Virus record (IMG/VR): IMGVR_UViG_3300045988_037143
Span: 1 to 5,674 of that record
Origin: a virus
DNA: 5,674 nt
Reading direction: 5' to 3' (one strand)
Positions 1 to 5,674 of this stretch are shown one piece after another. Below the pieces are notes generated by a model, which saw only the letters and a program-made list of their open reading frames with translations, did not search any database and was not told the DNA's origin. Numbering within the stretch: the stretch's first letter is position 1; every line of letters begins with the position of its first letter. The position numbers were made by a program, and so were the translations under genes.

Positions 1-77
1 CGTTGTTGCTTATCTGGTTATATACACCCTGAGTGATTGCCGCCATGGTGTTATAGCCCATTTGTTCGAACATGCTT
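1..77. repeat. Terminal redundancy: 1-77 is identical to 5598-5674. This is an assembly overlap of a circular genome (unit length 5597 nt).
   Basis: Base-by-base comparison of the first 77 nt (cgttgttgcttatctgg...gaacatgctt) with 5598-5674 shows identity. The VP2 reading frame stays open and in frame across the junction. Confidence 0.9.
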
Positions 78-346
78 TTGCGGTTAAACTTCTGCTGGCT
101 TTGCATATTGCTTTGAATTGCCCCTAGCATACTGTTCCAGTCTTGTAGGTTTTGTTCTCGGTTTACGCCGCTGGCGGCGCTGCTGTAGCCTCCTCCCTGG
201 CTTGAGCTTTCGTTGTGCTGTTGGCTGCCTCCGTTGCTCTCCATCAGATTCCCGCCTAGGAATTTGTTTATGAGTCCTCCGGCGATTGTTGGGAGTAGTT
301 GTTTGCCGATTCCGAGCAGTGCGCTGCCGATTGCTGCTAACGCCAT
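1..346 (-). CDS. VP2: VP2 minor capsid / DNA pilot protein, N-terminal part. The complete CDS is 5098..5674 joined to 78..346 on the circle, 281 aa.
   Basis: The minus-strand ATG at 346-344 gives MALAAIGSALLGIGKQLLPTIAGGLINKFLGGNLMESNGGSQQHNESSSQGGGYSSAASGVNREQNLQDWNSMLGAIQSNMQSQQKFNRKS with no stop. It joins in frame to MFEQMGYNTMAAITQ..., the 190-aa ORF at the other end of the window. The joined length is 846 nt (282 codons). The hydrophobic N-terminus and Gly/Ser-rich middle are typical of microvirus pilot proteins. It sits immediately 3' of VP1, as in gokushoviruses. Confidence 0.75.
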   Translation of the reverse strand, partial: MALAAIGSALLGIGKQLLPTIAGGLINKFLGGNLMESNGGSQQHNESSSQGGGYSSAASGVNREQNLQDWNSMLGAIQSNMQSQQKFNRKSMFEQMGYNTMAAITQGVYNQISNN

Positions 347-354
347 AATAAAAT

Positions 355-377
355 AGCCCGGGGTTTTGCCCCGGGCT
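355..377 (-). terminator. Stem-loop between the VP1 stop and the VP2 start. A 9-bp GC-rich stem (355-363 / 369-377, a355:t377 then 8 G:C pairs) with a 5-nt loop, followed on the minus strand by ATTTTATT. Terminator-like or an mRNA/ssDNA structural element.
   Basis: Read directly: minus strand AGCCCGGGG-CAAAA-CCCCGGGCT-ATTTTATT-ATG(VP2). A purine tract AGGAAAGGGGGAAG lies immediately 5' of the stem on the minus strand. Confidence 0.5.
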
Positions 378-391
378 TCCCCCTTTCCTGT

Positions 392-2032
392 TTAATGATG
401 GTCGTCGAGCCCTGGAATGCTGTACATGGGCATAGGTCTCACGCTGGTGTTGTCAATGACCGTATCCATGATGAACTGCGGTTCGTCGTCCACCGCCAAG
501 GTTCGCTGGATTTCGGAGTCTCCTTCTTTCATCCATGCCTGGCTTAAGCTCGGCGTTTCCGTGTAGTTGTCTCCGTAGTGCCAACTGTCCAGCGTTCCGG
601 TCGCGTTGCTCCGGAATTTTCCGCTGATTCTGTTTGGCTTCATGCGGTATTCTGCCCATGCTTCTTGGTACCCAAATGCCTGTTCATCTGTGTCCGTTCC
701 GGTAAGGTACAGCTCCTTTTTGAGAATTGCTTGCTCTCCCAGATTTGCGAAGACCGGGTAATAGAAATCCAGATTGGTTTTTCGACTCCACATCCGCTCG
801 AGTCCCTGCTGATAGGTATGGTCATGCCGGATGCAGCATACTCCGATAACATAGCCGTGTTCCTCAAAGCTTTTTGTGAACATACTGCCGTTGTACGGCG
901 TAACGCTCACGGCTGCGGTGTTGCCCTGCGGACTTTCCGTAGTTGTGCCGCTGGTCTGGATGACCTGACTCATGTTGATGGTGATACGTGTACCGCCCAG
1001 ATACTCAGGAATTTGTACCGTCTTATCGCTGATTTTGGTGTTGAACAGCGAATAAATCATCTCGCGGTAACGGCTGCCTCCGCGTGCCAGCTGTTCGTAG
1101 TATTTTTGAACTTGAAATGCTTGTCTCAGCTGATTGACGGTTGCGGATGTTACGTTGTCCATTCTTGCGCCTAAGTAGATTTCTTTCTGGGTGGGTGTGT
1201 ATCCTACAACGCCTAAAGGTTTGGTTTGGTTTTCGATTTTTGCCAGCGCTCCGGTGGTGCTTAACTCTGTTCGTTTGATGTCTGAATATCCGAATATTGG
1301 AGCGTTTCCTTCCAGTGGAAGTTGTACTTCAGGGCCTTTCTGCGGACTCGGTAAAGCCGACGTGAAATAGTCGTGGTACTTGTTGACCGGAAGAGGTCTG
1401 CCGCCTGTGTATGCGTTCTGGAGAATATACTCCAAGTCCGGTTTTGCCGCGTCCATGCCCTTTGTTTCGTCGTCCGTATAGTTTACGGTTGCGTCTGTCG
1501 TGCTGTTGATGGCCGGATTGTCAACGTTCTGGTCTCTAAACCACTCCTGCCATATCATAGCGTACGCCCTCATGGGCAACGCGTTGATAGTGAATGCCGT
1601 ATCTTCTCCTTTGCTTACCTTGGTCGGAATACCCATGTAGTCAAGGATGCTTCCTTCATAAGGCGCGGGCTTATCTTTCGTTCCGACGACTCTTACTTGT
1701 GGGATGTAGTAGTTATTTGTTTGCGTCCAAGGTCCTTCATCGTTCTCGCCCATGAATCTCTTGAAGTTATCCCAGATGATTCGACAAGGTACGTTGAAAT
1801 AGTAGATGTCCATATGACAGTTATCCATAACCGGGAAGATAGGAGTTGTCATACGTATAATAGCGGCTTGGTCGACGCTGAACGTGTCTCCCGGTAACAC
1901 CTCGTCCACATAAAATGGGATGAGCTGTCCTGCATTGAGCGTCAGTTTGACATCTTGCCGCCGCTTGAATCGGCTTCGCGTAATGTCCAAGCGCGGGACT
2001 TGGTTAAATCCTGCGTTTTTGTTTCTGTTCAT
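392..2032 (-). CDS. VP1: Major capsid protein VP1 (546 aa), Microviridae / gokushovirus-like
   Basis: A 546-aa ORF. Its N-terminus (MNRNKNAGFNQVPRLDITRSRF...NAGQLIPFYVDEVLPGDTF...PIFPVMDNCHMDIYYFNVPCRIIWDNFKRFMGE) follows the conserved gokushovirus VP1 pattern. Its size fits Gokushovirinae VP1 (about 530-570 aa). SD GGAGG lies 7 nt upstream of the ATG, which overlaps the upstream gene stop (ATGA). Confidence 0.95.
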   Translation of the reverse strand: MNRNKNAGFNQVPRLDITRSRFKRRQDVKLTLNAGQLIPFYVDEVLPGDTFSVDQAAIIRMTTPIFPVMDNCHMDIYYFNVPCRIIWDNFKRFMGENDEGPWTQTNNYYIPQVRVVGTKDKPAPYEGSILDYMGIPTKVSKGEDTAFTINALPMRAYAMIWQEWFRDQNVDNPAINSTTDATVNYTDDETKGMDAAKPDLEYILQNAYTGGRPLPVNKYHDYFTSALPSPQKGPEVQLPLEGNAPIFGYSDIKRTELSTTGALAKIENQTKPLGVVGYTPTQKEIYLGARMDNVTSATVNQLRQAFQVQKYYEQLARGGSRYREMIYSLFNTKISDKTVQIPEYLGGTRITINMSQVIQTSGTTTESPQGNTAAVSVTPYNGSMFTKSFEEHGYVIGVCCIRHDHTYQQGLERMWSRKTNLDFYYPVFANLGEQAILKKELYLTGTDTDEQAFGYQEAWAEYRMKPNRISGKFRSNATGTLDSWHYGDNYTETPSLSQAWMKEGDSEIQRTLAVDDEPQFIMDTVIDNTSVRPMPMYSIPGLDDHH

Positions 2033-2505
2033 TCAGTCGCCTCCGTTTTCGGTTCCTCGGGTTTTTCTTCCTGATAGATTCCCAGATTTTTTGCCCACTC
2101 GACCGTTCCAAACGATGCAATAAATTTGTCGACATCGTTGTCAAATTTGAGCTTTATTTCTTTCGGCACCTCGTCCCAGATTTGCTCTGCTCGCATCATG
2201 ATGTTCTGGAGTTCGGCCAGATTCTGCGGCGCTTCGGTAAAGTCTTGGATGCCGCCCCCGATGTCTGGCTTGATGCGTGCTGCAATGTCTGGGTCGATGC
2301 TTGCCCGCCTGATGATGTTTTCCAGTTTGGTTTCTTCGAGATAGCTGTCTATCTCGGCTTGCTGGTCAATGGTTTGGTCGAGTCTCAGCACCTTTTCGCC
2401 TTTTTTATTGCGCTCCCAGAGGTACGTGCGCCTTACGCTTTCCCCGGCCTCGGTCGGCTTTGCTGTGGCGGTCTGCCGCCAGTTACTTACTGAGCGATAC
2501 GCCAT
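2029..2505 (-). CDS. Acidic 158-aa protein immediately upstream of VP1 and translationally coupled to it. Candidate internal scaffolding protein (VP3-like).
   Basis: The track ORF 2029..2532 begins with TTG. The likely true start is the ATG at 2505-2503, preceded by AAGGAG. The stop TGA overlaps the VP1 ATG (ATGA). The protein is acidic and Glu/Asp-rich, as scaffold proteins are. It has no recognisable enzymatic motifs. The assignment rests on position and composition only. Confidence 0.45.
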   Translation of the reverse strand: MAYRSVSNWRQTATAKPTEAGESVRRTYLWERNKKGEKVLRLDQTIDQQAEIDSYLEETKLENIIRRASIDPDIAARIKPDIGGGIQDFTEAPQNLAELQNIMMRAEQIWDEVPKEIKLKFDNDVDKFIASFGTVEWAKNLGIYQEEKPEEPKTEATE

Positions 2506-2725
2506 CGTAAATGTTCTCCTTTTCGTTCTCAAACAGGCCTGTTTTCTCGTCGAATTTTGCCAGGCGCACTAGCCGATAGTCGCTCGGCGTCTTACTCATC
2601 ATGTTGCGTTCATCGGTCAGCGCAATCTTAAAGTTGCGCTCTGCTACCTTGTCTTCTCGTTCCGTAAAGATAGTGATGTAGCCCATCACACACTGGTCAT
2701 AGATGCCGTATACGTTGTTGCTCAT
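2483..2725 (-). CDS. Hypothetical small protein (80 aa)
   Basis: Starts at the internal ATG at 2725-2723, preceded by GGGGGAAAAACAA. The 129-aa track ORF extends it upstream from a TTG through a low-complexity His-rich stretch built from CAT repeats, which is unlikely to be real. It overlaps the VP3-like start by 23 nt. No recognisable motifs. Confidence 0.45.
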   Translation of the reverse strand: MSNNVYGIYDQCVMGYITIFTEREDKVAERNFKIALTDERNMMSKTPSDYRLVRLAKFDEKTGLFENEKENIYDGVSLSK

Positions 2726-2829
2726 TTGTTTTTCCCCCAGTTTTTGATGATGTCGGTGCCCATTGCGATGAGCGCAAAGCTTGCGCTGCACATTGCGATG
2801 ATGCTGGCGATGACTCCTACCCATATCAT
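2722..2829 (-). CDS. 35-aa single-pass membrane peptide (MIWVGVIASIIAMCSASFALIAMGTDIIKNWGKNK). Candidate small membrane or lysis-type protein.
   Basis: Translated by hand from the minus strand. ATG at 2829-2827. The TGA stop overlaps the ATG of the downstream 80-aa ORF (ATGA coupling). There are 26 hydrophobic residues, then the charged tail KNWGKNK. An alternative in-frame GTG at 2838 has GAGGGGG 9 nt upstream (38 aa). It is absent from the ORF track because it is under 60 aa. Confidence 0.4.
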   Translation of the reverse strand: MIWVGVIASIIAMCSASFALIAMGTDIIKNWGKNK

Positions 2830-2937
2830 GATGTTCACAGTCTGATACCCCCTCGCATTGCGCCGCTCCCAAGGTTGATGGCCTTGGTTTTTCGTGCGGT
2901 CTTGTTGTAAATTTTTGCGTCCTTGGATTTGCGGACT

Positions 2938-3159
2938 TTACTCCTCTTTCCCATGGTTGATTTCCCTTCTGAGTATTTCTACCTCAATTTCTGTCGCTTT
3001 TGCTTTTTTTCGGAAGACCATGTCAAGGTAAAACTTTGCGTCGTCGTACTTTGCGGCCTGTCGTAGCAGTTTGTAAGCGGCGTCGATTTCCTTGTAGGTT
3101 CGCGTCAATTTCTCCATGAGTTTCGTGTCGGTCTGGTCTCTTACGTTCCATGTTTTCAC
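2938..3159 (-). CDS. Hypothetical small charged helical protein (73 aa)
   Basis: GTG start at 3159, preceded by GAGGAG with a 7-nt spacer. The protein is Lys/Glu-rich. No recognisable motifs. Confidence 0.45.
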   Translation of the reverse strand: MKTWNVRDQTDTKLMEKLTRTYKEIDAAYKLLRQAAKYDDAKFYLDMVFRKKAKATEIEVEILRREINHGKEE

Positions 3160-3163
3160 TTGG

Positions 3164-3310
3164 TTACTCCTCGGGCTTGTTTCCCTCTACTGCATGATAA
3201 ATCTTGTCCAGCATAGCCAAGATTTTGCGGATGTTGTTAAACAGCGCGTCGATTTCCTTGATAGACAGAGCGGACACCTTCTTTCTTAAGTTATTTTGTA
3301 TAAATGGCAT
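3164..3310 (-). CDS. Possible 48-aa ORF (MPFIQNNLRKKVSALSIKEIDALFNNIRKILAMLDKIYHAVEGNKPEE)
   Basis: Hand-translated. Its stop TAA lies within the GAGGAGTAA RBS of the 73-aa gene. It has no clear SD, and its ATG sits inside a candidate -10 element. The call is weak. Confidence 0.25.
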   Translation of the reverse strand: MPFIQNNLRKKVSALSIKEIDALFNNIRKILAMLDKIYHAVEGNKPEE

Positions 3311-3336
3311 TGTAAAACAGCACTTTCCGCTGTCTA
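3309..3336 (-). promoter_or_regulatory. Candidate secondary sigma70-like promoter just downstream of the terminator (minus strand TAGACA-16 nt-TACAAT)
   Basis: Minus strand TAGACA (complement of 3331-3336), a 16-nt spacer, then TACAAT (complement of 3309-3314). This is a 5/6 + 5/6 match to consensus. It could re-initiate transcription of the downstream genes after the strong terminator. Confidence 0.3.
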
Positions 3337-3352
3337 ACTATTTATGTTGTAT

Positions 3353-3390
3353 CAAAAAAAACAGGGCTTGTCAAGCCCTGTTTTAAAATT
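3353..3390 (-). terminator. Rho-independent terminator. Perfect palindrome ACAGGGCTTG-T-CAAGCCCTGT flanked by A8 and T-rich tracts. Bidirectional, but strongest for the minus strand (stem followed by T8).
   Basis: Plus strand: CAAAAAAAA-CAGGGCTTGTCAAGCCCTG-TTTTAAAATT. Minus strand: ...AGAGAAAAATAA-TTTTAAAA-CAGGGCTTGACAAGCCCTG-TTTTTTTTGAT. It sits immediately after the stop of the 58-aa ORF. Confidence 0.7.
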
Positions 3391-3565
3391 ATTTTTCTCT
3401 TCTGTTTAGTTCGTCTTTTGCTAGCGCGTGGATGTATTCACAACGGTAGCTTATGTCATTACATGGGCATTTTTCGCAATCTCTGTTGCAGTGCTTGAAT
3501 TTGTAGTCCATCCATCTCAAGGCCTCTGTGTCAAGGTCTTTGTACGTTGCTCTTAAAGTTTTCAT
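3389..3565 (-). CDS. 58-aa Cys-rich small protein (MKTLRATYKDLDTEALRWMDYKFKHCNRDCEKCPCNDISYRCEYIHALAKDELNRREK). Possible zinc-binding small protein.
   Basis: Hand-translated. ATG at 3565-3563, preceded by AGGGGAT with a 7-nt spacer, 20 nt downstream of a consensus promoter. The TAA stop abuts the terminator. The Cys/His cluster H25-C26-x3-C30-x2-C33-x-C35-x6-C42-x3-H46 resembles a zinc ribbon or knuckle. It is absent from the track because it is under 60 aa. Confidence 0.55.
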   Translation of the reverse strand: MKTLRATYKDLDTEALRWMDYKFKHCNRDCEKCPCNDISYRCEYIHALAKDELNRREK

Positions 3566-3591
3566 AGTCTTTATCCCCTTTCTTTAATTGG

Positions 3592-3620
3592 ATTATACCA
3601 CAACTTTGCTTATTTGTCAA
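3592..3620 (-). promoter_or_regulatory. Perfect consensus sigma70 promoter on the minus strand: TTGACA - 17 nt - (TGg)TATAAT with an upstream A/T-rich UP-like tract
   Basis: The reverse complement of 3591-3640 is AACTTTTTTTCAAAAACCTC-TTGACA-AATAAGCAAAGTTGTGG-TATAAT-C. Both hexamers match 6/6 and the spacer is 17 nt. The extended -10 TGn is present. The predicted TSS is near 3585, giving a 20-nt leader with an SD for the 58-aa ORF. Confidence 0.7.
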
Positions 3621-3661
3621 GAGGTTTTTGAAAAAAAGTTTAGATGTGCTATGCCTTGAAG

Positions 3662-3701
3662 GTCATGCGGTAGGCGCGGTGCGCCGTACGGAGAGCATGA
3701 C
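3662..3701. other. GC-rich nested stem-loop in the intergenic region. Outer stem GTCATGC (3662-3668) pairs with GCATGAC (3695-3701). Inner stem GTAGGCGC (3670-3677) pairs with GCGCC-(G bulge)-TAC (3681-3689), loop GGT.
   Basis: Inverted repeats read directly from the sequence. This is the only GC-rich island in an otherwise AT-rich non-coding region. Confidence 0.4.
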
Positions 3702-3743
3702 GAGACCTTCCGGTTTCGCTCGTCGGACGGCCTTTAATTCGAT

Positions 3744-3948
3744 TTTTCCACACTTTCAACATTTTCAACAGGTTTTCCACGAAAAGTTGCACAAATGGTT
3801 TTGTGCATATTGCTACACTTTCAACAATTCAACAAGTTATCCACAAAAGTATCAACATCAAAATAATCCAGAAAATATCGTTCCAAGGATAAAAATTCAT
3901 GGTATTCAACATTTCAACACTCCCTACTATTACGACTACAACAAGTTA
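3744..3948. repeat. Iteron-like array. There are six perfect TTCAACA heptamers in three closely spaced direct-repeat pairs: 3755/3764, 3820/3828 and 3905/3913. Flanking repeats are CACTTTCAACA (twice), TTTTCCAC (twice) and CAACAAGTTA (twice).
   Basis: Counted directly in the AT-rich intergenic region. Pair spacing is 8-9 nt, and the pairs are 65 and 85 nt apart. There is no minus-strand ORF here. The plus-strand 129-aa ORF across it is low-complexity. Confidence 0.5.
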
Positions 3949-3968
3949 ATAATAAATAATAATAATAT
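3949..3968. repeat. (AAT)n / AT-only tract (aataataaataataataata) immediately 5' of the GC hairpin
   Basis: Read directly. A 100% A/T 20-mer. Confidence 0.6.
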
Positions 3969-4008
3969 CATGCGCGTGCGTGCGCGATTACGTGCGCGCG
4001 CGTGCATG
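3969..4008. repeat. 40-nt alternating pyrimidine-purine (CG/TG) element. It forms an 18-bp hairpin (catgcgcgtgcgtgcgcg - atta - cgtgcgcgcgcgtgcatg) with 14 Watson-Crick pairs and 4 G:T pairs. It has potential to form Z-DNA or an ssDNA hairpin.
   Basis: Each arm alternates Py-Pu perfectly for 18 and 18+ nt. Arm pairing was checked position by position. It is embedded in 100% AT flanks. Confidence 0.6.
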
Positions 4009-4027
4009 TCAATATGAAATAAAATAC

Positions 4028-4063
4028 TCAGCCAAGTAACATACTTGATAGTTACTTGGCTGA
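4028..4063 (-). terminator. Perfect 13-bp inverted repeat (TCAGCCAAGTAAC / GTTACTTGGCTGA) with a 10-nt loop. On the minus strand it is followed by TATTTTATTT. Probable terminator downstream of VP4. The plus-strand loop is ATACTTGATA.
   Basis: The reverse complement of 4028-4040 equals 4051-4063 exactly. A second small hairpin TGACAC-caaa-GTGTCA (4065-4080) overlaps the VP4 stop codon. Confidence 0.6.
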
Positions 4064-4077
4064 GTGACACCAAAGTG

Positions 4078-5097
4078 TCAAAATACACCTTTGGCTTTGC
4101 TCATCTTTTTGGACATGGATGCTTCCTTGTCCTTTAGCTGCTCTGCGTATGACTTATCTGTTTCCGCGTTTCTTTCGATTAGGGACGCAATGGCTTTTTC
4201 CTGCCGATACTGTTTGATTCTCCACGCTTTTTCAGGGTTCTCCGCTTCCAGTTTTCGCCAGTAGTATTCCGGTATGGCTGCTCTCTTGCCGTTGGTAAGC
4301 TGTATGTATCCCTGCTGCCAGAGTCTCTCTTGATGGTCTCGGAACCATTGGTCTCCGAGTCCCGGCTTTCGGCTCATTGTGCAAAATGGTGGTATTAAAC
4401 CCATTTTTTGGAAACGCTTTTTGTCGTTGCCGTACAGCTTTTTAGTTACGTACCCTGCAACATAATTATATGTTTGTGGTACTGCTTGTGCGATGTCAAC
4501 TGTACCCTGCCCCCAGATTTTGACTAGCTTATCACTTGTGTAGTGACCGTGTCTTGATAGCTTATGGATTGGCTTTAAGTCGTCTGGGTGCCATCCGTAC
4601 AGTATCATGTGATAGTGTGGTCTCGCTGTGTTGTCTCCATACTCTCCGGCTAAAAAGTATCTCAGAGGCTCTTTGATGGCCTTTCTTAGCCTTTTAATAA
4701 AGAGCTGGGTATCCTCCACGCTCAATGTTTGCGTCGTTCTCGGACGCTCTGAGGTGCCTTTCCAGATATTTATGCCGCCTTTGTAGATTTCGCCTGTTTC
4801 TGTGTCTTGTGTTGGTACATGGTCATCGTCGTACGTTAGCGTGATAAACCAGACACTTTCTTTGTCGTATCCGTATGCTTCTAGCTCCATCCGCGTCGCC
4901 CAGTCTTTGCGTTTGCGCAGTCTGCACCCGGTACATTGTCCACATGGTATCAACATTACATCTTTGCGGTACATTAAATTTTCGTACGTCATTTTGGTCT
5001 TGTGTATCTCGTTAAAAGAGGCGAGTGAGTACACTCGCCCACTCGCCTCTCTGTCGTGAGGTACATAAAACCGAATTAACGGTTTATTGCATCCCAT
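4078..5097 (-). CDS. VP4: Replication initiation protein VP4 (339 aa), an HUH rolling-circle endonuclease
   Basis: The N-terminus MGCNKPLIRFYVP has the M-x-C-x-x-P-L form common in gokushovirus VP4. The CGQCTGC zinc-binding cluster is present. Motif I is FITLTY (residues 84-89). Motif II is HYH (residues 161-163, nt 4609-4617, verified). Motif III is YVAGYVTKK (residues 212-220, nt 4438-4464, verified), near-identical to phiX174 A protein YVAKYVNKK with its two catalytic Tyr. The ATG directly abuts the VP2 stop (TAAATG). Confidence 0.93.
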   Translation of the reverse strand: MGCNKPLIRFYVPHDREASGRVYSLASFNEIHKTKMTYENLMYRKDVMLIPCGQCTGCRLRKRKDWATRMELEAYGYDKESVWFITLTYDDDHVPTQDTETGEIYKGGINIWKGTSERPRTTQTLSVEDTQLFIKRLRKAIKEPLRYFLAGEYGDNTARPHYHMILYGWHPDDLKPIHKLSRHGHYTSDKLVKIWGQGTVDIAQAVPQTYNYVAGYVTKKLYGNDKKRFQKMGLIPPFCTMSRKPGLGDQWFRDHQERLWQQGYIQLTNGKRAAIPEYYWRKLEAENPEKAWRIKQYRQEKAIASLIERNAETDKSYAEQLKDKEASMSKKMSKAKGVF

Positions 5098-5674
5098 TTA
5101 TTTAAGTTTCCCTTTCCAATATTCGATGTTTTTGCTCCCGATGAAGTCTCTTCCCGGTTTGTAGTTGAGCTCATCTTTGGTCGGTTGTCTCCCTGCACCG
5201 CCGACGCCACTGTTTAGGTTGCTGAGGTCGTTGAAGACGTCCTTGAATGCATTAAACGCTTTGTCTGCGCTTGTGTGTGACCAGCTTGTAGCGTCTCCAA
5301 CCGCTTGTGCTGCGTTGTACCAGTTACTTTTGCTTTTGCTCCATGTGTTGTTGTGGTTCTGGCTTACTCCGAGTGCGCTTGCGGTCGCTGCACTGCTGCT
5401 TGCGAGGCCCATACTTGCCCCGCTGATAGTTCCCTGACTGCCGCCCGGTGTGCTTGCTCCGCCCTGTTGGTATGCTAAGATAGGGTTAATGCCTGCTTTT
5501 CGCATATCTTCCACGGCTCGCTGATAAGCTGTATTGCTCATTTGTTCTTGCCAAGCTCTGTTTTTGGCTGCTTCTGCGCTGTTGTAGGACATCGCCGCGT
5601 TGTTGCTTATCTGGTTATATACACCCTGAGTGATTGCCGCCATGGTGTTATAGCCCATTTGTTCGAACATGCTT
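5098..5674 (-). CDS. VP2: VP2 minor capsid / pilot protein, C-terminal part. Continues upstream across the circular junction to the ATG at 346.
   Basis: The 190-aa track ORF (MFEQMGYNTMAAITQGVYNQ...GGASTPGGSQGTISGASMGLASSSAATASALG...) is open to the window edge and in frame with 78..346. It has a Gly/Ser/Ala-rich low-complexity core typical of VP2. Its TAA is adjacent to the VP4 ATG. Confidence 0.85.
   Translation of the reverse strand, partial: SMFEQMGYNTMAAITQGVYNQISNNAAMSYNSAEAAKNRAWQEQMSNTAYQRAVEDMRKAGINPILAYQQGGASTPGGSQGTISGASMGLASSSAATASALGVSQNHNNTWSKSKSNWYNAAQAVGDATSWSHTSADKAFNAFKDVFNDLSNLNSGVGGAGRQPTKDELNYKPGRDFIGSKNIEYWKGKLK
5598..5674. repeat. Second copy of the terminal redundancy (identical to 1-77)
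   Basis: See the 1-77 feature. Confidence 0.9.

Follow-up and report, generated by a model that had tools for sequence, protein, structure and literature searches.

Several kinds of mobile replicon make use of the DnaA protein of their hosts. DnaA boxes are known in P1 and lambda, and origins of the P1 oriR, F, pSC101 and RK2 type have their own Rep protein acting on 17-22-bp iterons, together with one to a few helper DnaA boxes. The A site of R6K (ABC-primosome) works as a single-strand hairpin. Clusters of DnaA boxes, such as E. coli datA and those of B. subtilis, titrate DnaA. Here, an array of direct repeats is described in a 5,674-nt stretch of viral DNA (positions 1 to 5,674 of IMG/VR record IMGVR_UViG_3300045988_037143), which is hereafter called the window; positions are counted along the strand as given, the + strand. 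The window is a gokushovirus genome (Microviridae), and the repeats belong to a cassette of about 225 bp (3744-3969) that appears to copy the architecture of the chromosomal origin between dnaA and dnaN of its putative hosts.

The closest described system is the basal unwinding system (BUS) of bacterial chromosomal origins. As defined by Pelliciari 2021 (PMC8287927), a BUS contains a DnaA box that deviates from the standard motif of the species at no more than two positions. This box is often accompanied by a second one in tandem, which has the same orientation, lies 0-3 bp away and has up to four mismatches. The spacer from box to trio is 0-16 bp and includes a gap of about 4 bp, the GC-rich cluster of earlier usage; it is followed by at least three DnaA-trios (NAN in the 3'-to-5' direction, consensus 3'-GAT-5') and the unwinding region beyond (PMC8287927). 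In Table S1 of the same paper, where sequences are written 3' to 5', the B. subtilis BUS is composed of TTATCCACA, AATCCACA, GGCC and CTACTATTACTTCTACTA..., in that order.

Correspondence with the basal unwinding system

In the cassette, about 11 head-to-tail boxes, the last of which form a terminal tandem pair, are followed by a GC-rich gap, DnaA-trios and an A+T-rich element. When the B. subtilis BUS was aligned without gaps at window position 3903, 27 of 37 positions were identical; the next best position on either strand gave 21 of 37, and the mean was 9.3 with a standard deviation of 2.6.

The box nearest to the trios, ATTTCAACA (3911-3919), is 4 bp from the first trio and has one mismatch to the host-type motif TTTTCAACA. 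It is abutted by the tandem second box TATTCAACA (3903-3911), in the same 9+8-nt layout as TTATCCACA and AATCCACA of B. subtilis. This terminal pair, TATTCAACA followed by (A)TTTCAACA (3903-3919, + strand, 8-nt spacing), is at the position equivalent to that of B. subtilis DnaA-boxes 6 and 7. Next comes the 4-nt GC-rich gap CTCC (3920-3923, + strand), which corresponds to GGCC in B. subtilis and to CCCC, GCCC or TACC in the host origins described below. The DnaA-trio-like triplets (3924-3944) are on the minus strand: the + strand reads CTA CTA TTA CGA CTA CAA CAA, and the minus strand, which is the gene-sense strand, reads 3'-GAT GAT AAT GCT GAT GTT GTT-5'. In other words, the trios GAT GAT AAT, exactly the minimum number, are followed by GCT. 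The trio of C. difficile, CACCTACTACTATTACTACTATGA, is of the same kind. Immediately past the trios lies a stretch of 92% A+T (3945-3969), a candidate DNA unwinding element that is conserved in composition and not in sequence. The location is not that of a chromosomal origin, the genome being that of a circular gokushovirus with VP1, VP2, VP3, VP4 and VP5. Since BUS-type parts are found here outside a chromosome, the cassette is regarded as a BUS-like module and not as a chromosomal oriC.

Upstream of the terminal pair, the boxes form two clusters. Cluster A (3744-3793, + strand), defined by a box scan and an alignment of 60 relatives, consists of five DnaA-box-like 9-mers in the same orientation: TTTTCCACA (3744-3752), CTTTCAACA (3753-3761), TTTTCAACA (3762-3770), TTTTCCACG (3773-3781) and the degenerate AGTTGCACA (3785-3793), which is TGTTGCACA in most relatives. 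The four boxes of cluster B (3818-3857, + strand) are CTTTCAACA (3818-3826), AATTCAACA (3826-3834), the perfect E. coli-type DnaA box TTATCCACA (3837-3845) and GTATCAACA (3849-3857). A perfect 8-bp inverted repeat, TGCACAAA/TTTGTGCA (3788-3807), is located between the clusters; a divergent clade has a different small hairpin, CGTCATTTTGACG, at this place, and the hairpin is not conserved in sequence. Cluster B is separated from the terminal pair by a variable A+T-rich spacer (3858-3902), which is poorly conserved between clades and makes up the largest part of the 79 alignment columns classed as spacer. On the VP4 side, the cassette is bounded by a GC-rich palindrome of alternating purines and pyrimidines (3970-4007), conserved in kind and not in sequence. 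It should be mentioned that this palindrome, 38 nt of CG/TG steps adjoining the A+T-rich stretch, is imperfect and prone to Z-DNA or cruciform formation.

Comparison with other replication elements

The cassette shares its parts, their order and their orientation with the BUS of bacterial oriC (incC of B. subtilis, oriC2 of C. difficile and the dnaA-dnaN spacers of Ruminococcus and Oscillospiraceae). As in these origins, further boxes lie upstream in the same orientation, and the CTA-type triplets read 3'-GAT-5' on the opposite strand. Unlike them, it is located in a 5.6-kb single-stranded DNA (ssDNA) phage of the rolling-circle type and not between dnaA and dnaN; it measures about 225 bp, whereas the host spacers measure 350-1500 bp; it is almost without reverse-oriented boxes and carries a phage-specific sequence, CTACAACAAGTTA, after the trios; and its borders are GC-rich palindromes, with both orientations being found.

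Plasmid and temperate-phage origins (P1 oriR, F, pSC101, RK2 and the R6K A site) resemble the cassette in that a mobile replicon borrows host DnaA via boxes beside an A+T-rich region. However, the cassette has neither their iterons nor a theta-type Rep, and it has a full chromosomal-type box array with trios. In contrast to the hairpin of the R6K A site, the cassette is unstructured as ssDNA at its BUS end (3860-3960), which is less structured than shuffled sequence (z +1.6). Dense DnaA boxes outside the chromosomal origin are common to the cassette, datA and the B. subtilis clusters, but the latter two have no trio and unwinding module, and the cassette conserves both. We know of no DnaA involvement in the replication of phiX174. 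The viral-strand origin and primosome assembly site of that phage are, like the cassette, cis-acting microvirus replication elements with an A+T-rich stretch. The origin (J02482, position 4306) differs from the cassette in being a 30-nt site inside gene A that is cut by the phage A protein.

The view in the preliminary description of this DNA that nothing similar has been described for gokushoviruses agrees with the literature searched, in which no gokushovirus DnaA box and no DnaA-trio of Microviridae is reported. No such cassette is described in the titles and opening parts of the abstracts listed on Microviridae and DnaA; in one such paper, DnaA is incidental. Chromosomal BUS elements have been described; of a complete BUS-type origin mimic in Microviridae, there seems to be no earlier report.

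Repeat unit and statistics

The preliminary description had reported six exact copies of TTCAACA in three pairs with 8-9-nt spacing and embedded in longer repeats, and all of these were confirmed at their positions. On the + strand, the copies start at 3755, 3764, 3820, 3828, 3905 and 3913 (3755-3919 in all), the starts of the two copies being 9, 8 and 8 nt apart in the three successive pairs. The longer repeats are CACTTTCAACA (3751 and 3816), ATTCAACA (3827 and 3904), TTTTCCAC (3744 and 3773) and CAACAAGTTA (3830 and 3939). The whole window contains seven copies of the heptamer, against 0.97 expected from dinucleotide shuffles. When 3744-3948 alone, a region of 205 nt, was shuffled 20,000 times with preservation of composition, the heptamer occurred on average 0.05 times in mononucleotide shuffles (maximum 2) and 0.30 times in dinucleotide shuffles (maximum 4). 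Six copies were reached in none of the 20,000 shuffles of either type, which means that the enrichment is real. Six copies of any 7-mer were found in 0.2% of the dinucleotide shuffles of this region.

The array as such therefore stands, with a different unit and extent. The heptamers are the cores of 9-mers, [C/T/A][T/A]TTCAACA, which are of the TTTTCAACA type, and the functional unit reaches to about 3969, beyond the end at 3948 given earlier. Nine 9-mers with at most one mismatch to TTWTCMACA, among them a perfect TTATCCACA and a perfect TTTTCCACA, are concentrated in 176 nt of the + strand; the rest of this strand (5.5 kb) contains three. With the canonical TTATCCACA (3837) and TTTTCCACA (3744) included, about 11 boxes in the same orientation are found in non-coding DNA. 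The spacing had been taken as a sign of a dimeric binder; 8-9 nt is instead the abutting 9+8-nt tandem layout of B. subtilis DnaA-boxes 6 and 7. To judge from these features and from the homologous sites described below, the TTCAACA pairs are very probably DnaA boxes of the variant type TTTTCAACA.

Conservation among gokushoviruses

The array is located inside a 512-nt gap (3566-4077) between the stop codon of VP4, the replication initiator gene, and a 58-amino-acid (58-aa) open reading frame (ORF). This is the only large non-coding gap of the genome. In blastn searches, the gap was matched in 44 GenBank gokushovirus records, and 3744-3959 was the most widely retained piece. Eighty loci were fetched by VP4 similarity, so that this sample is unbiased for the motif. 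Every contig in it that was long enough, including those of a clade with about 57% VP4 identity, had the array at the same place, with 5-9 copies of TTCAACA; the conservation expected of a functional array, which the preliminary description had proposed to check, was thus borne out.

Sixty distinct cassettes were aligned, and the consensus sequences of two clades (57% VP4 identity) were compared. The agreement was 0.91 in the boxes and 0.90 in the trios, against 0.53 in the spacers (79 columns) and 0.40 in the A+T-rich stretch. Individual boxes change from one type to the other. The box at 3744 is TTTTCAACA in 50 of the 60 relatives and that at 3773 in 19; the box at 3837 is TTATCCACA in 31, TTTTCAACA in 15 and TTTTCCACA in 8; the box at 3911 is TTTTCCAC[A/T] in the divergent clade. 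Since TTCAACA and TCCACA replace each other at homologous positions, they form one class of site with the consensus TTTTC[A>C]ACA.

In a wider comparison of 120 distinct phage cassettes, the spacing of the terminal pair was 8 nt in 79 and 9 nt in 41, within the range imposed by the search pattern (1-3 nt between heptamers). The mean GC content of the gap was 0.61. At least three consecutive trios were present in 116 of the 120 cassettes, and most relatives have five. The 40 nt past the trios had a mean A+T content of 70%, against 54% genome-wide.

Viral contigs were also scanned for a tandem pair followed by the gap and TAGTAG, which gave at least 119 loci. Among the matches listed, 91 of 113 new loci were gokushoviruses, whose VP4 is 29-100% identical to that of the window, with 57 of them below 50%. 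The TTCAACA architecture was retained in L201, L204 and L259 (VP4 34-45% identical). In L242 (VP4 about 29%), the same architecture is built from the canonical boxes TTATCCACA and TTTCCACA: four copies of TTATCCACA precede TTTCCACAtTTCCACA, atgc and CTACTACTACTACTAC, and an A+T-rich stretch follows. L243, L300 and L307 share the VP4 identity of about 29-30% with L242, the canonical-box reading being that of the L242 cassette alone. A box type that varies by lineage under a fixed architecture is what would be expected of adaptation to the DnaA of different hosts.

The tail after the trios, CTACAACAAGTTA (3932-3948 in the window), hardly varies among the TTCAACA-type phage cassettes that were examined and is kept at VP4 identities of 34-45% (L201, L204 and L259). 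It was not found in the bacterial origins or in L242, the canonical-box lineage, which has no CAACAAG. Minor variants of it were seen, namely CAACAAAT in L001 and L002, and AAGTA in several relatives.

The cassette is not a universal gokushovirus feature. No such cassette was found in the genomes of Chp2, phiMH2K and SpV4 (4.4-4.6 kb), and it is therefore considered an accessory module of the larger gut gokushoviruses rather than their core rolling-circle origin. A recently captured piece of host DNA, or a chimeric assembly, was rejected as its source: more than 100 independent contigs of microviruses carry the cassette, as do GenBank records from human, pig, monkey and dog, and its matches to bacterial loci are just 37-40 nt long.

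Some contigs in these collections are of other kinds. L061 (10,917 nt) and L076 (8,781 nt) are VP4-related and far longer than a microvirus genome, and they may be concatemers or chimeric assemblies. BUS-like modules were also seen in viral contigs without a VP1 or VP4 match (L225, L265, L290, L296, L304, L312, L215, L260, L301 and L306), an example being GTTGTCCACA..TTTTCCACA..TTATCCACA...TTTTCCACAgTTTCCACAgcaCTACTACTACTAatatatat. These contigs are up to 44 kb long, and some of the fetched stretches are just 4-6.5 kb. They may belong to other phages that have origin mimics, or they may be prophage calls extending over a host origin.

Bacterial origins with the same boxes

In the published collection of predicted BUS elements, that of Ruminococcus albus 7 begins with two TTTTCAACA boxes, and the standard DnaA-box motif is TTTTCAACA for C. 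pneumoniae AR39 and TTATCAACA for Borrelia burgdorferi (Table S1, PMC8287927). The most conserved string of the phage cassettes, the 19-20-mer TTTCAACAGGTTTT(N)CMACA, was used to scan 185,579 species genomes. At least 120 bacterial loci were matched, against about 17 expected from a uniform-composition estimate. Among the matches listed, many were from Ruminococcus, Oscillospiraceae or Eubacteriales and none was a microvirus; at 11 of the loci listed, the match was within 1.5 kb of dnaA. In L096, L125 and L088, DnaA is encoded upstream and the beta clamp downstream, as identified by Pfam.

These dnaA-dnaN spacers contain 9-20 TTCAACA boxes mixed with TCCACA boxes, and they end with a tandem pair, CCCC, CTACTACTAC and an A+T-rich stretch. 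The spacer end is 100-250 nt from the searched string, so that its architecture was not imposed by the query. The spacer ends read TTCAACAgtTTCAACAccccCTACTACTACTACTAaacatatatac in L088, ttTCCACAgtTTCAACAtaccCTACTACTACTACTAactatatac in L094 and TTCAACAgtttcaacaccccCTATTACTACTActgtatttatatta in L098. That of L085, TTCAACActtTTCAACAcccCTACTATTACGACTAC, has a trio string, CCCTACTATTACGACTAC, identical to that of the window. L085 (DAOTTU010000130.1, labelled as an Anaerolineae metagenome-assembled genome) has 12 TTCAACA-type boxes and no dnaA in its 7.9-kb contig, and its taxonomic label may be due to mis-binning. The Ruminococcus contig L147 is 94.6% identical to 3744-3780 of the window; in L147 and L174, dense box clusters were found with no dnaA in the 8-kb locus.

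Six residues of DnaA make base contacts (PMC7561715). In the DnaA genes of L096 (3416-4774), L125 (3613-4983) and L088 (2330-3712), all from Oscillospirales, three of the six differ from their E. coli and B. subtilis counterparts: P423 is replaced by T, A or V, T435 by S and H439 by Y. The origins of the same three loci are dominated by TTCAACA over TCCACA boxes. This suggests a lineage-specific, shifted DnaA-box preference in these Oscillospirales.

Inversion of the cassette

A block of about 213 nt, containing the boxes, the trios and the A+T-rich stretch, is inverted in L069 (2181-2393) and L079 (2271-2483) when compared with L062 (3156-3369) and L067 (3825-4037). Both flanks of the inverted block stay collinear with the close relatives. 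The boundaries of the block are GC-rich: the purine-pyrimidine palindrome lies towards VP4, and ACGCGCACAGCGC at the opposite end. Inversion is likely caused by recombination between short GC-rich inverted repeats, and the palindrome at 3970-4007 is a likely substrate.

Relative to gene sense, the cassette is in the opposite orientation in 70 loci and in the same orientation in none when VP4 identity is 70% or more. The numbers are 11 opposite and 5 same at 50-70%, and 12 opposite and 40 same below 50%; these counts include some contigs that were fetched twice. Since both orientations are common and 3860-3960 is unstructured as ssDNA, the cassette seems to function on duplex DNA. A hairpin signal acting on ssDNA, such as a complementary-strand origin or a signal of the R6K A-site type, was rejected in view of the unstructured 3860-3960, the unconserved hairpin at 3788-3807 and the flipping of the cassette.

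Proposed function and alternative explanations

The sequence identity and order of the parts, their match to host origins, their selective conservation, the independence of orientation and the accessory distribution are all directly seen. On this basis, the cassette is probably, at a moderate level of confidence, an unwinding or origin module that depends on host DnaA and acts on the double-stranded replicative form. DnaA-ATP of the host would nucleate on the consensus boxes of the replicative form and fill the head-to-tail array. It would then extend from the terminal pair onto the trio strand, which in the window is the gene-sense minus strand, and this extension would melt 3945-3969. The opened DNA might recruit the host helicase and replisome, so that the initiation machinery of the host would copy the replicative form, whether separately from rolling-circle replication by VP4 or alongside it. 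The binding of DnaA, the unwinding, the loading of helicase and the host identity are predictions from comparative sequence data.

Several points weigh against this function. To our knowledge, rolling-circle phages have no need for DnaA, and the cassette is not essential to gokushovirus replication, as can be seen from Chp2, phiMH2K and SpV4. Helicase loading in Firmicutes also requires DnaD and DnaB. The window has just three consecutive trios before the CGA interruption. Both boxes of the terminal pair have three mismatches each to the E. coli motif TTATCCACA, and it is only via the variant motif TTTTCAACA that ATTTCAACA agrees with the published rule. This variant motif is backed by the host origins and by Table S1 of PMC8287927, and in the clade of 57% identity the position of ATTTCAACA is occupied by TTTTCCACA, with one mismatch to the E. 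coli motif. It should also be mentioned that TTCAACA is assigned as the DnaA box of these bacteria from its enrichment in dnaA-dnaN spacers and from the database motif, that the genome scan was seeded with a phage-derived pattern, and that the host names are labels of metagenome-assembled genomes. TTCAACA-type boxes are found in Treponema, Parabacteroides and others as well, and the assignment of Ruminococcus and Oscillospiraceae-type Clostridia as the hosts is therefore tentative.

A stronger form of the proposal is that the cassette is a working oriC-type origin and the replicative form a DnaA-controlled minichromosome that replicates in step with the host cell cycle. This is conceivable, though we regard it as doubtful.

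DnaA might instead be bound without any origin firing. In that case the cassette would be a sink or sensor that titrates DnaA, that blocks or re-times host initiation, or that couples phage expression to DnaA-ATP. Many boxes per genome, multiplied by many copies of the replicative form, would bind much DnaA, and clusters of DnaA boxes away from origins do occur in bacteria, as in L147 and L174. A preprint on phage T5, whose abstract describes the injection stop signal, reports DnaA boxes in that phage. The orientation independence and accessory distribution of the cassette would also fit. However, boxes alone would suffice for titration, whereas 116 of 120 cassettes also keep, as origins do, the GC-rich gap, the trios (0.90 between-clade agreement) and the A+T-rich run directly behind the terminal pair. 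A sink or sensor is thus considered unlikely.

Another way in which DnaA could act is by assisting the rolling-circle origin: by melting, it would make a nick site, perhaps CTACAACAAGTTA, accessible in single-stranded form to VP4, an HUH endonuclease. HUH initiators cut ssDNA, the cassette is in the only large non-coding region, and the near-invariant CTACAACAAGTTA is next to the A+T-rich stretch in the TTCAACA-type phage cassettes examined and not in host origins. The first 18 nt of the phiX174 origin (CAACTTGATATTAATAAC...) have their best match, 13 of 18, at 3939-3956 on the + strand, that is, the antisense strand. This resemblance is not significant, since the runners-up reach 12 of 18 and the 30-mer gives no standout; it is at background, and a phiX174-type origin gains no support from it. 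Furthermore, the canonical-box lineage L242 has no CAACAAG, frequent inversion would flip the nicked and packaged strand, and Chp2, phiMH2K and SpV4 replicate without the cassette. These points make a DnaA-assisted VP4 origin rather improbable.

The preliminary description had interpreted the repeats as iterons or operators for a phage protein, either VP4 or the 58-aa Cys-rich protein. The general idea of a direct-repeat array that binds an initiator, beside an A+T-rich stretch, is retained; these two binders are not. Direct repeats about one helical turn apart do adjoin a rep gene and a strong promoter, and Rep-binding iterons are known for other HUH replicons. However, of 145 microvirus loci with the cassette, only 13 had a homologue of the 58-aa protein, which is absent even from relatives with 97% VP4 identity; with no family match and no co-conservation, this protein was rejected as the binder. 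As for VP4, the TTCAACA boxes are unchanged across VP4s that are 34-100% identical, unlike a cognate pair of Rep and iteron. Identical boxes occur in bacterial dnaA-dnaN spacers, and the phage boxes are exchanged with canonical DnaA boxes and precede DnaA-trios. Their unit is 9 nt, against 17-22 nt for plasmid iterons, the sole replication protein is an HUH rolling-circle initiator, and plasmid iteron origins of the theta type have no counterpart of the trio and A+T-rich unwinding module. We consider iterons very unlikely. A plasmid-derived origin was rejected as well, there being no meaningful match among 72,556 plasmids.

Equally remote is a transcriptional control array, in which DnaA, or RNA polymerase at a minus-strand -35-like TTGAAA, would regulate the strong promoter at 3592-3620, from which the downstream genes are driven: the cassette starts 124 nt upstream of this sigma-70 promoter (12/12), whose region is a degenerate duplicate of cluster A with box-like sequences over its -35 and -10, and DnaA is known as a transcription factor (PMC13438810), but other clades have the cassette inverted or directly upstream of VP4, the trios and A+T-rich module are unnecessary for regulation, and a promoter scan gave 2 sites against 2.1 expected from shuffles, so that a promoter array was rejected for want of any excess of promoter-like sites.

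Genomic context

Pfam and PHROG searches identified the window as a gokushovirus genome with every gene on the minus strand. VP1 (capsid) is at 392-2032, VP3 (scaffold) at 2029-2532, VP5 at 2483-2872, the 58-aa Cys-rich ORF at 3389-3565 and VP4 at 4078-5097; VP2 (pilot protein) runs off the window end. VP4 is an HUH rolling-circle initiator (Pfam REP_ORF2-G2P, PHROG 942) and the sole replication protein. Positions 1-77 are identical to 5598-5674, which indicates that the genome is circular, measures about 5,597 nt and was assembled with overlapping ends, VP2 (281 aa in other assemblies) spanning the junction. The same phage was found as a stand-alone contig of 5.6-5.7 kb in four independent metagenome assemblies.

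No gene was called in the gap 3566-4077 in these four assemblies. The + strand ORF that overlaps the array (3628-4017) is open in just 3 of 60 distinct relatives, which indicates that the array region is non-coding; with no Pfam match either, a coding region was rejected. The only Rfam match, tpke11 at 3954-4028, scored 25.2 bits, below the gathering score of 43, and a structured RNA was likewise rejected.

On the minus strand, the 58-aa ORF is preceded by the sigma-70 promoter (3592-3620), which consists of TTGACA, a 17-nt spacer and TG-TATAAT and has 12 of 12 matches. A degenerate duplicate of box cluster A (3732-3788) was noticed at 3582-3640, as repeats D3, D6 and D8 with an offset of 148-150 nt. 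The -35 element TTGACA overlaps a decayed box, TTGTCAAGA, and the -10 element overlaps the box-like ATTATACCACA; DnaA could also affect the promoter of the 58-aa ORF. Outside the cassette, a perfect 15-bp hairpin followed by a T-rich tail (4026-4065, minus strand) is the probable VP4 terminator. The region between VP5 and the promoter (2873-3565) contains small ORFs only, of 58, 48, 59 and 39 aa in the gene calls of other assemblies, with no family matches. It is a variable accessory region, from which the 58-aa ORF can be missing as noted above. Two further box-like 9-mers were seen 11 nt apart on the + strand within the VP4 gene (4936-4955): TTGTCCACA at 4936 and GTATCAACA at 4947. Their orientation is the same as that of the cassette boxes, and they may have arisen by chance.

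Implications

In the gut of humans and animals, gokushoviruses count among the ssDNA phages of highest abundance. If the proposed function is correct, these phages recruit the master initiator of the host, a strategy of replication or persistence not described for Microviridae in the literature searched. The payoff could be amplification of the replicative form independently of VP4, plasmid-like persistence, or replication coupled to host growth. The DnaA/oriC field would also gain a minimised unwinding module from nature, about 225 bp long and independent of orientation, with hundreds of sequence variants that would show which of its positions matter.

The box variant would in addition give a clue to the host: TTCAACA would point to Ruminococcus and Oscillospiraceae-type Clostridia, and canonical boxes to hosts elsewhere. 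If the boxes track the DnaA specificity of the host, they would serve as a host barcode for gut microviruses that are otherwise host-less. Were the replicative form indeed a minichromosome, it would provide the integrase-less gut gokushoviruses with a plasmid-like carrier state or a state resembling lysogeny, which would explain their long persistence.

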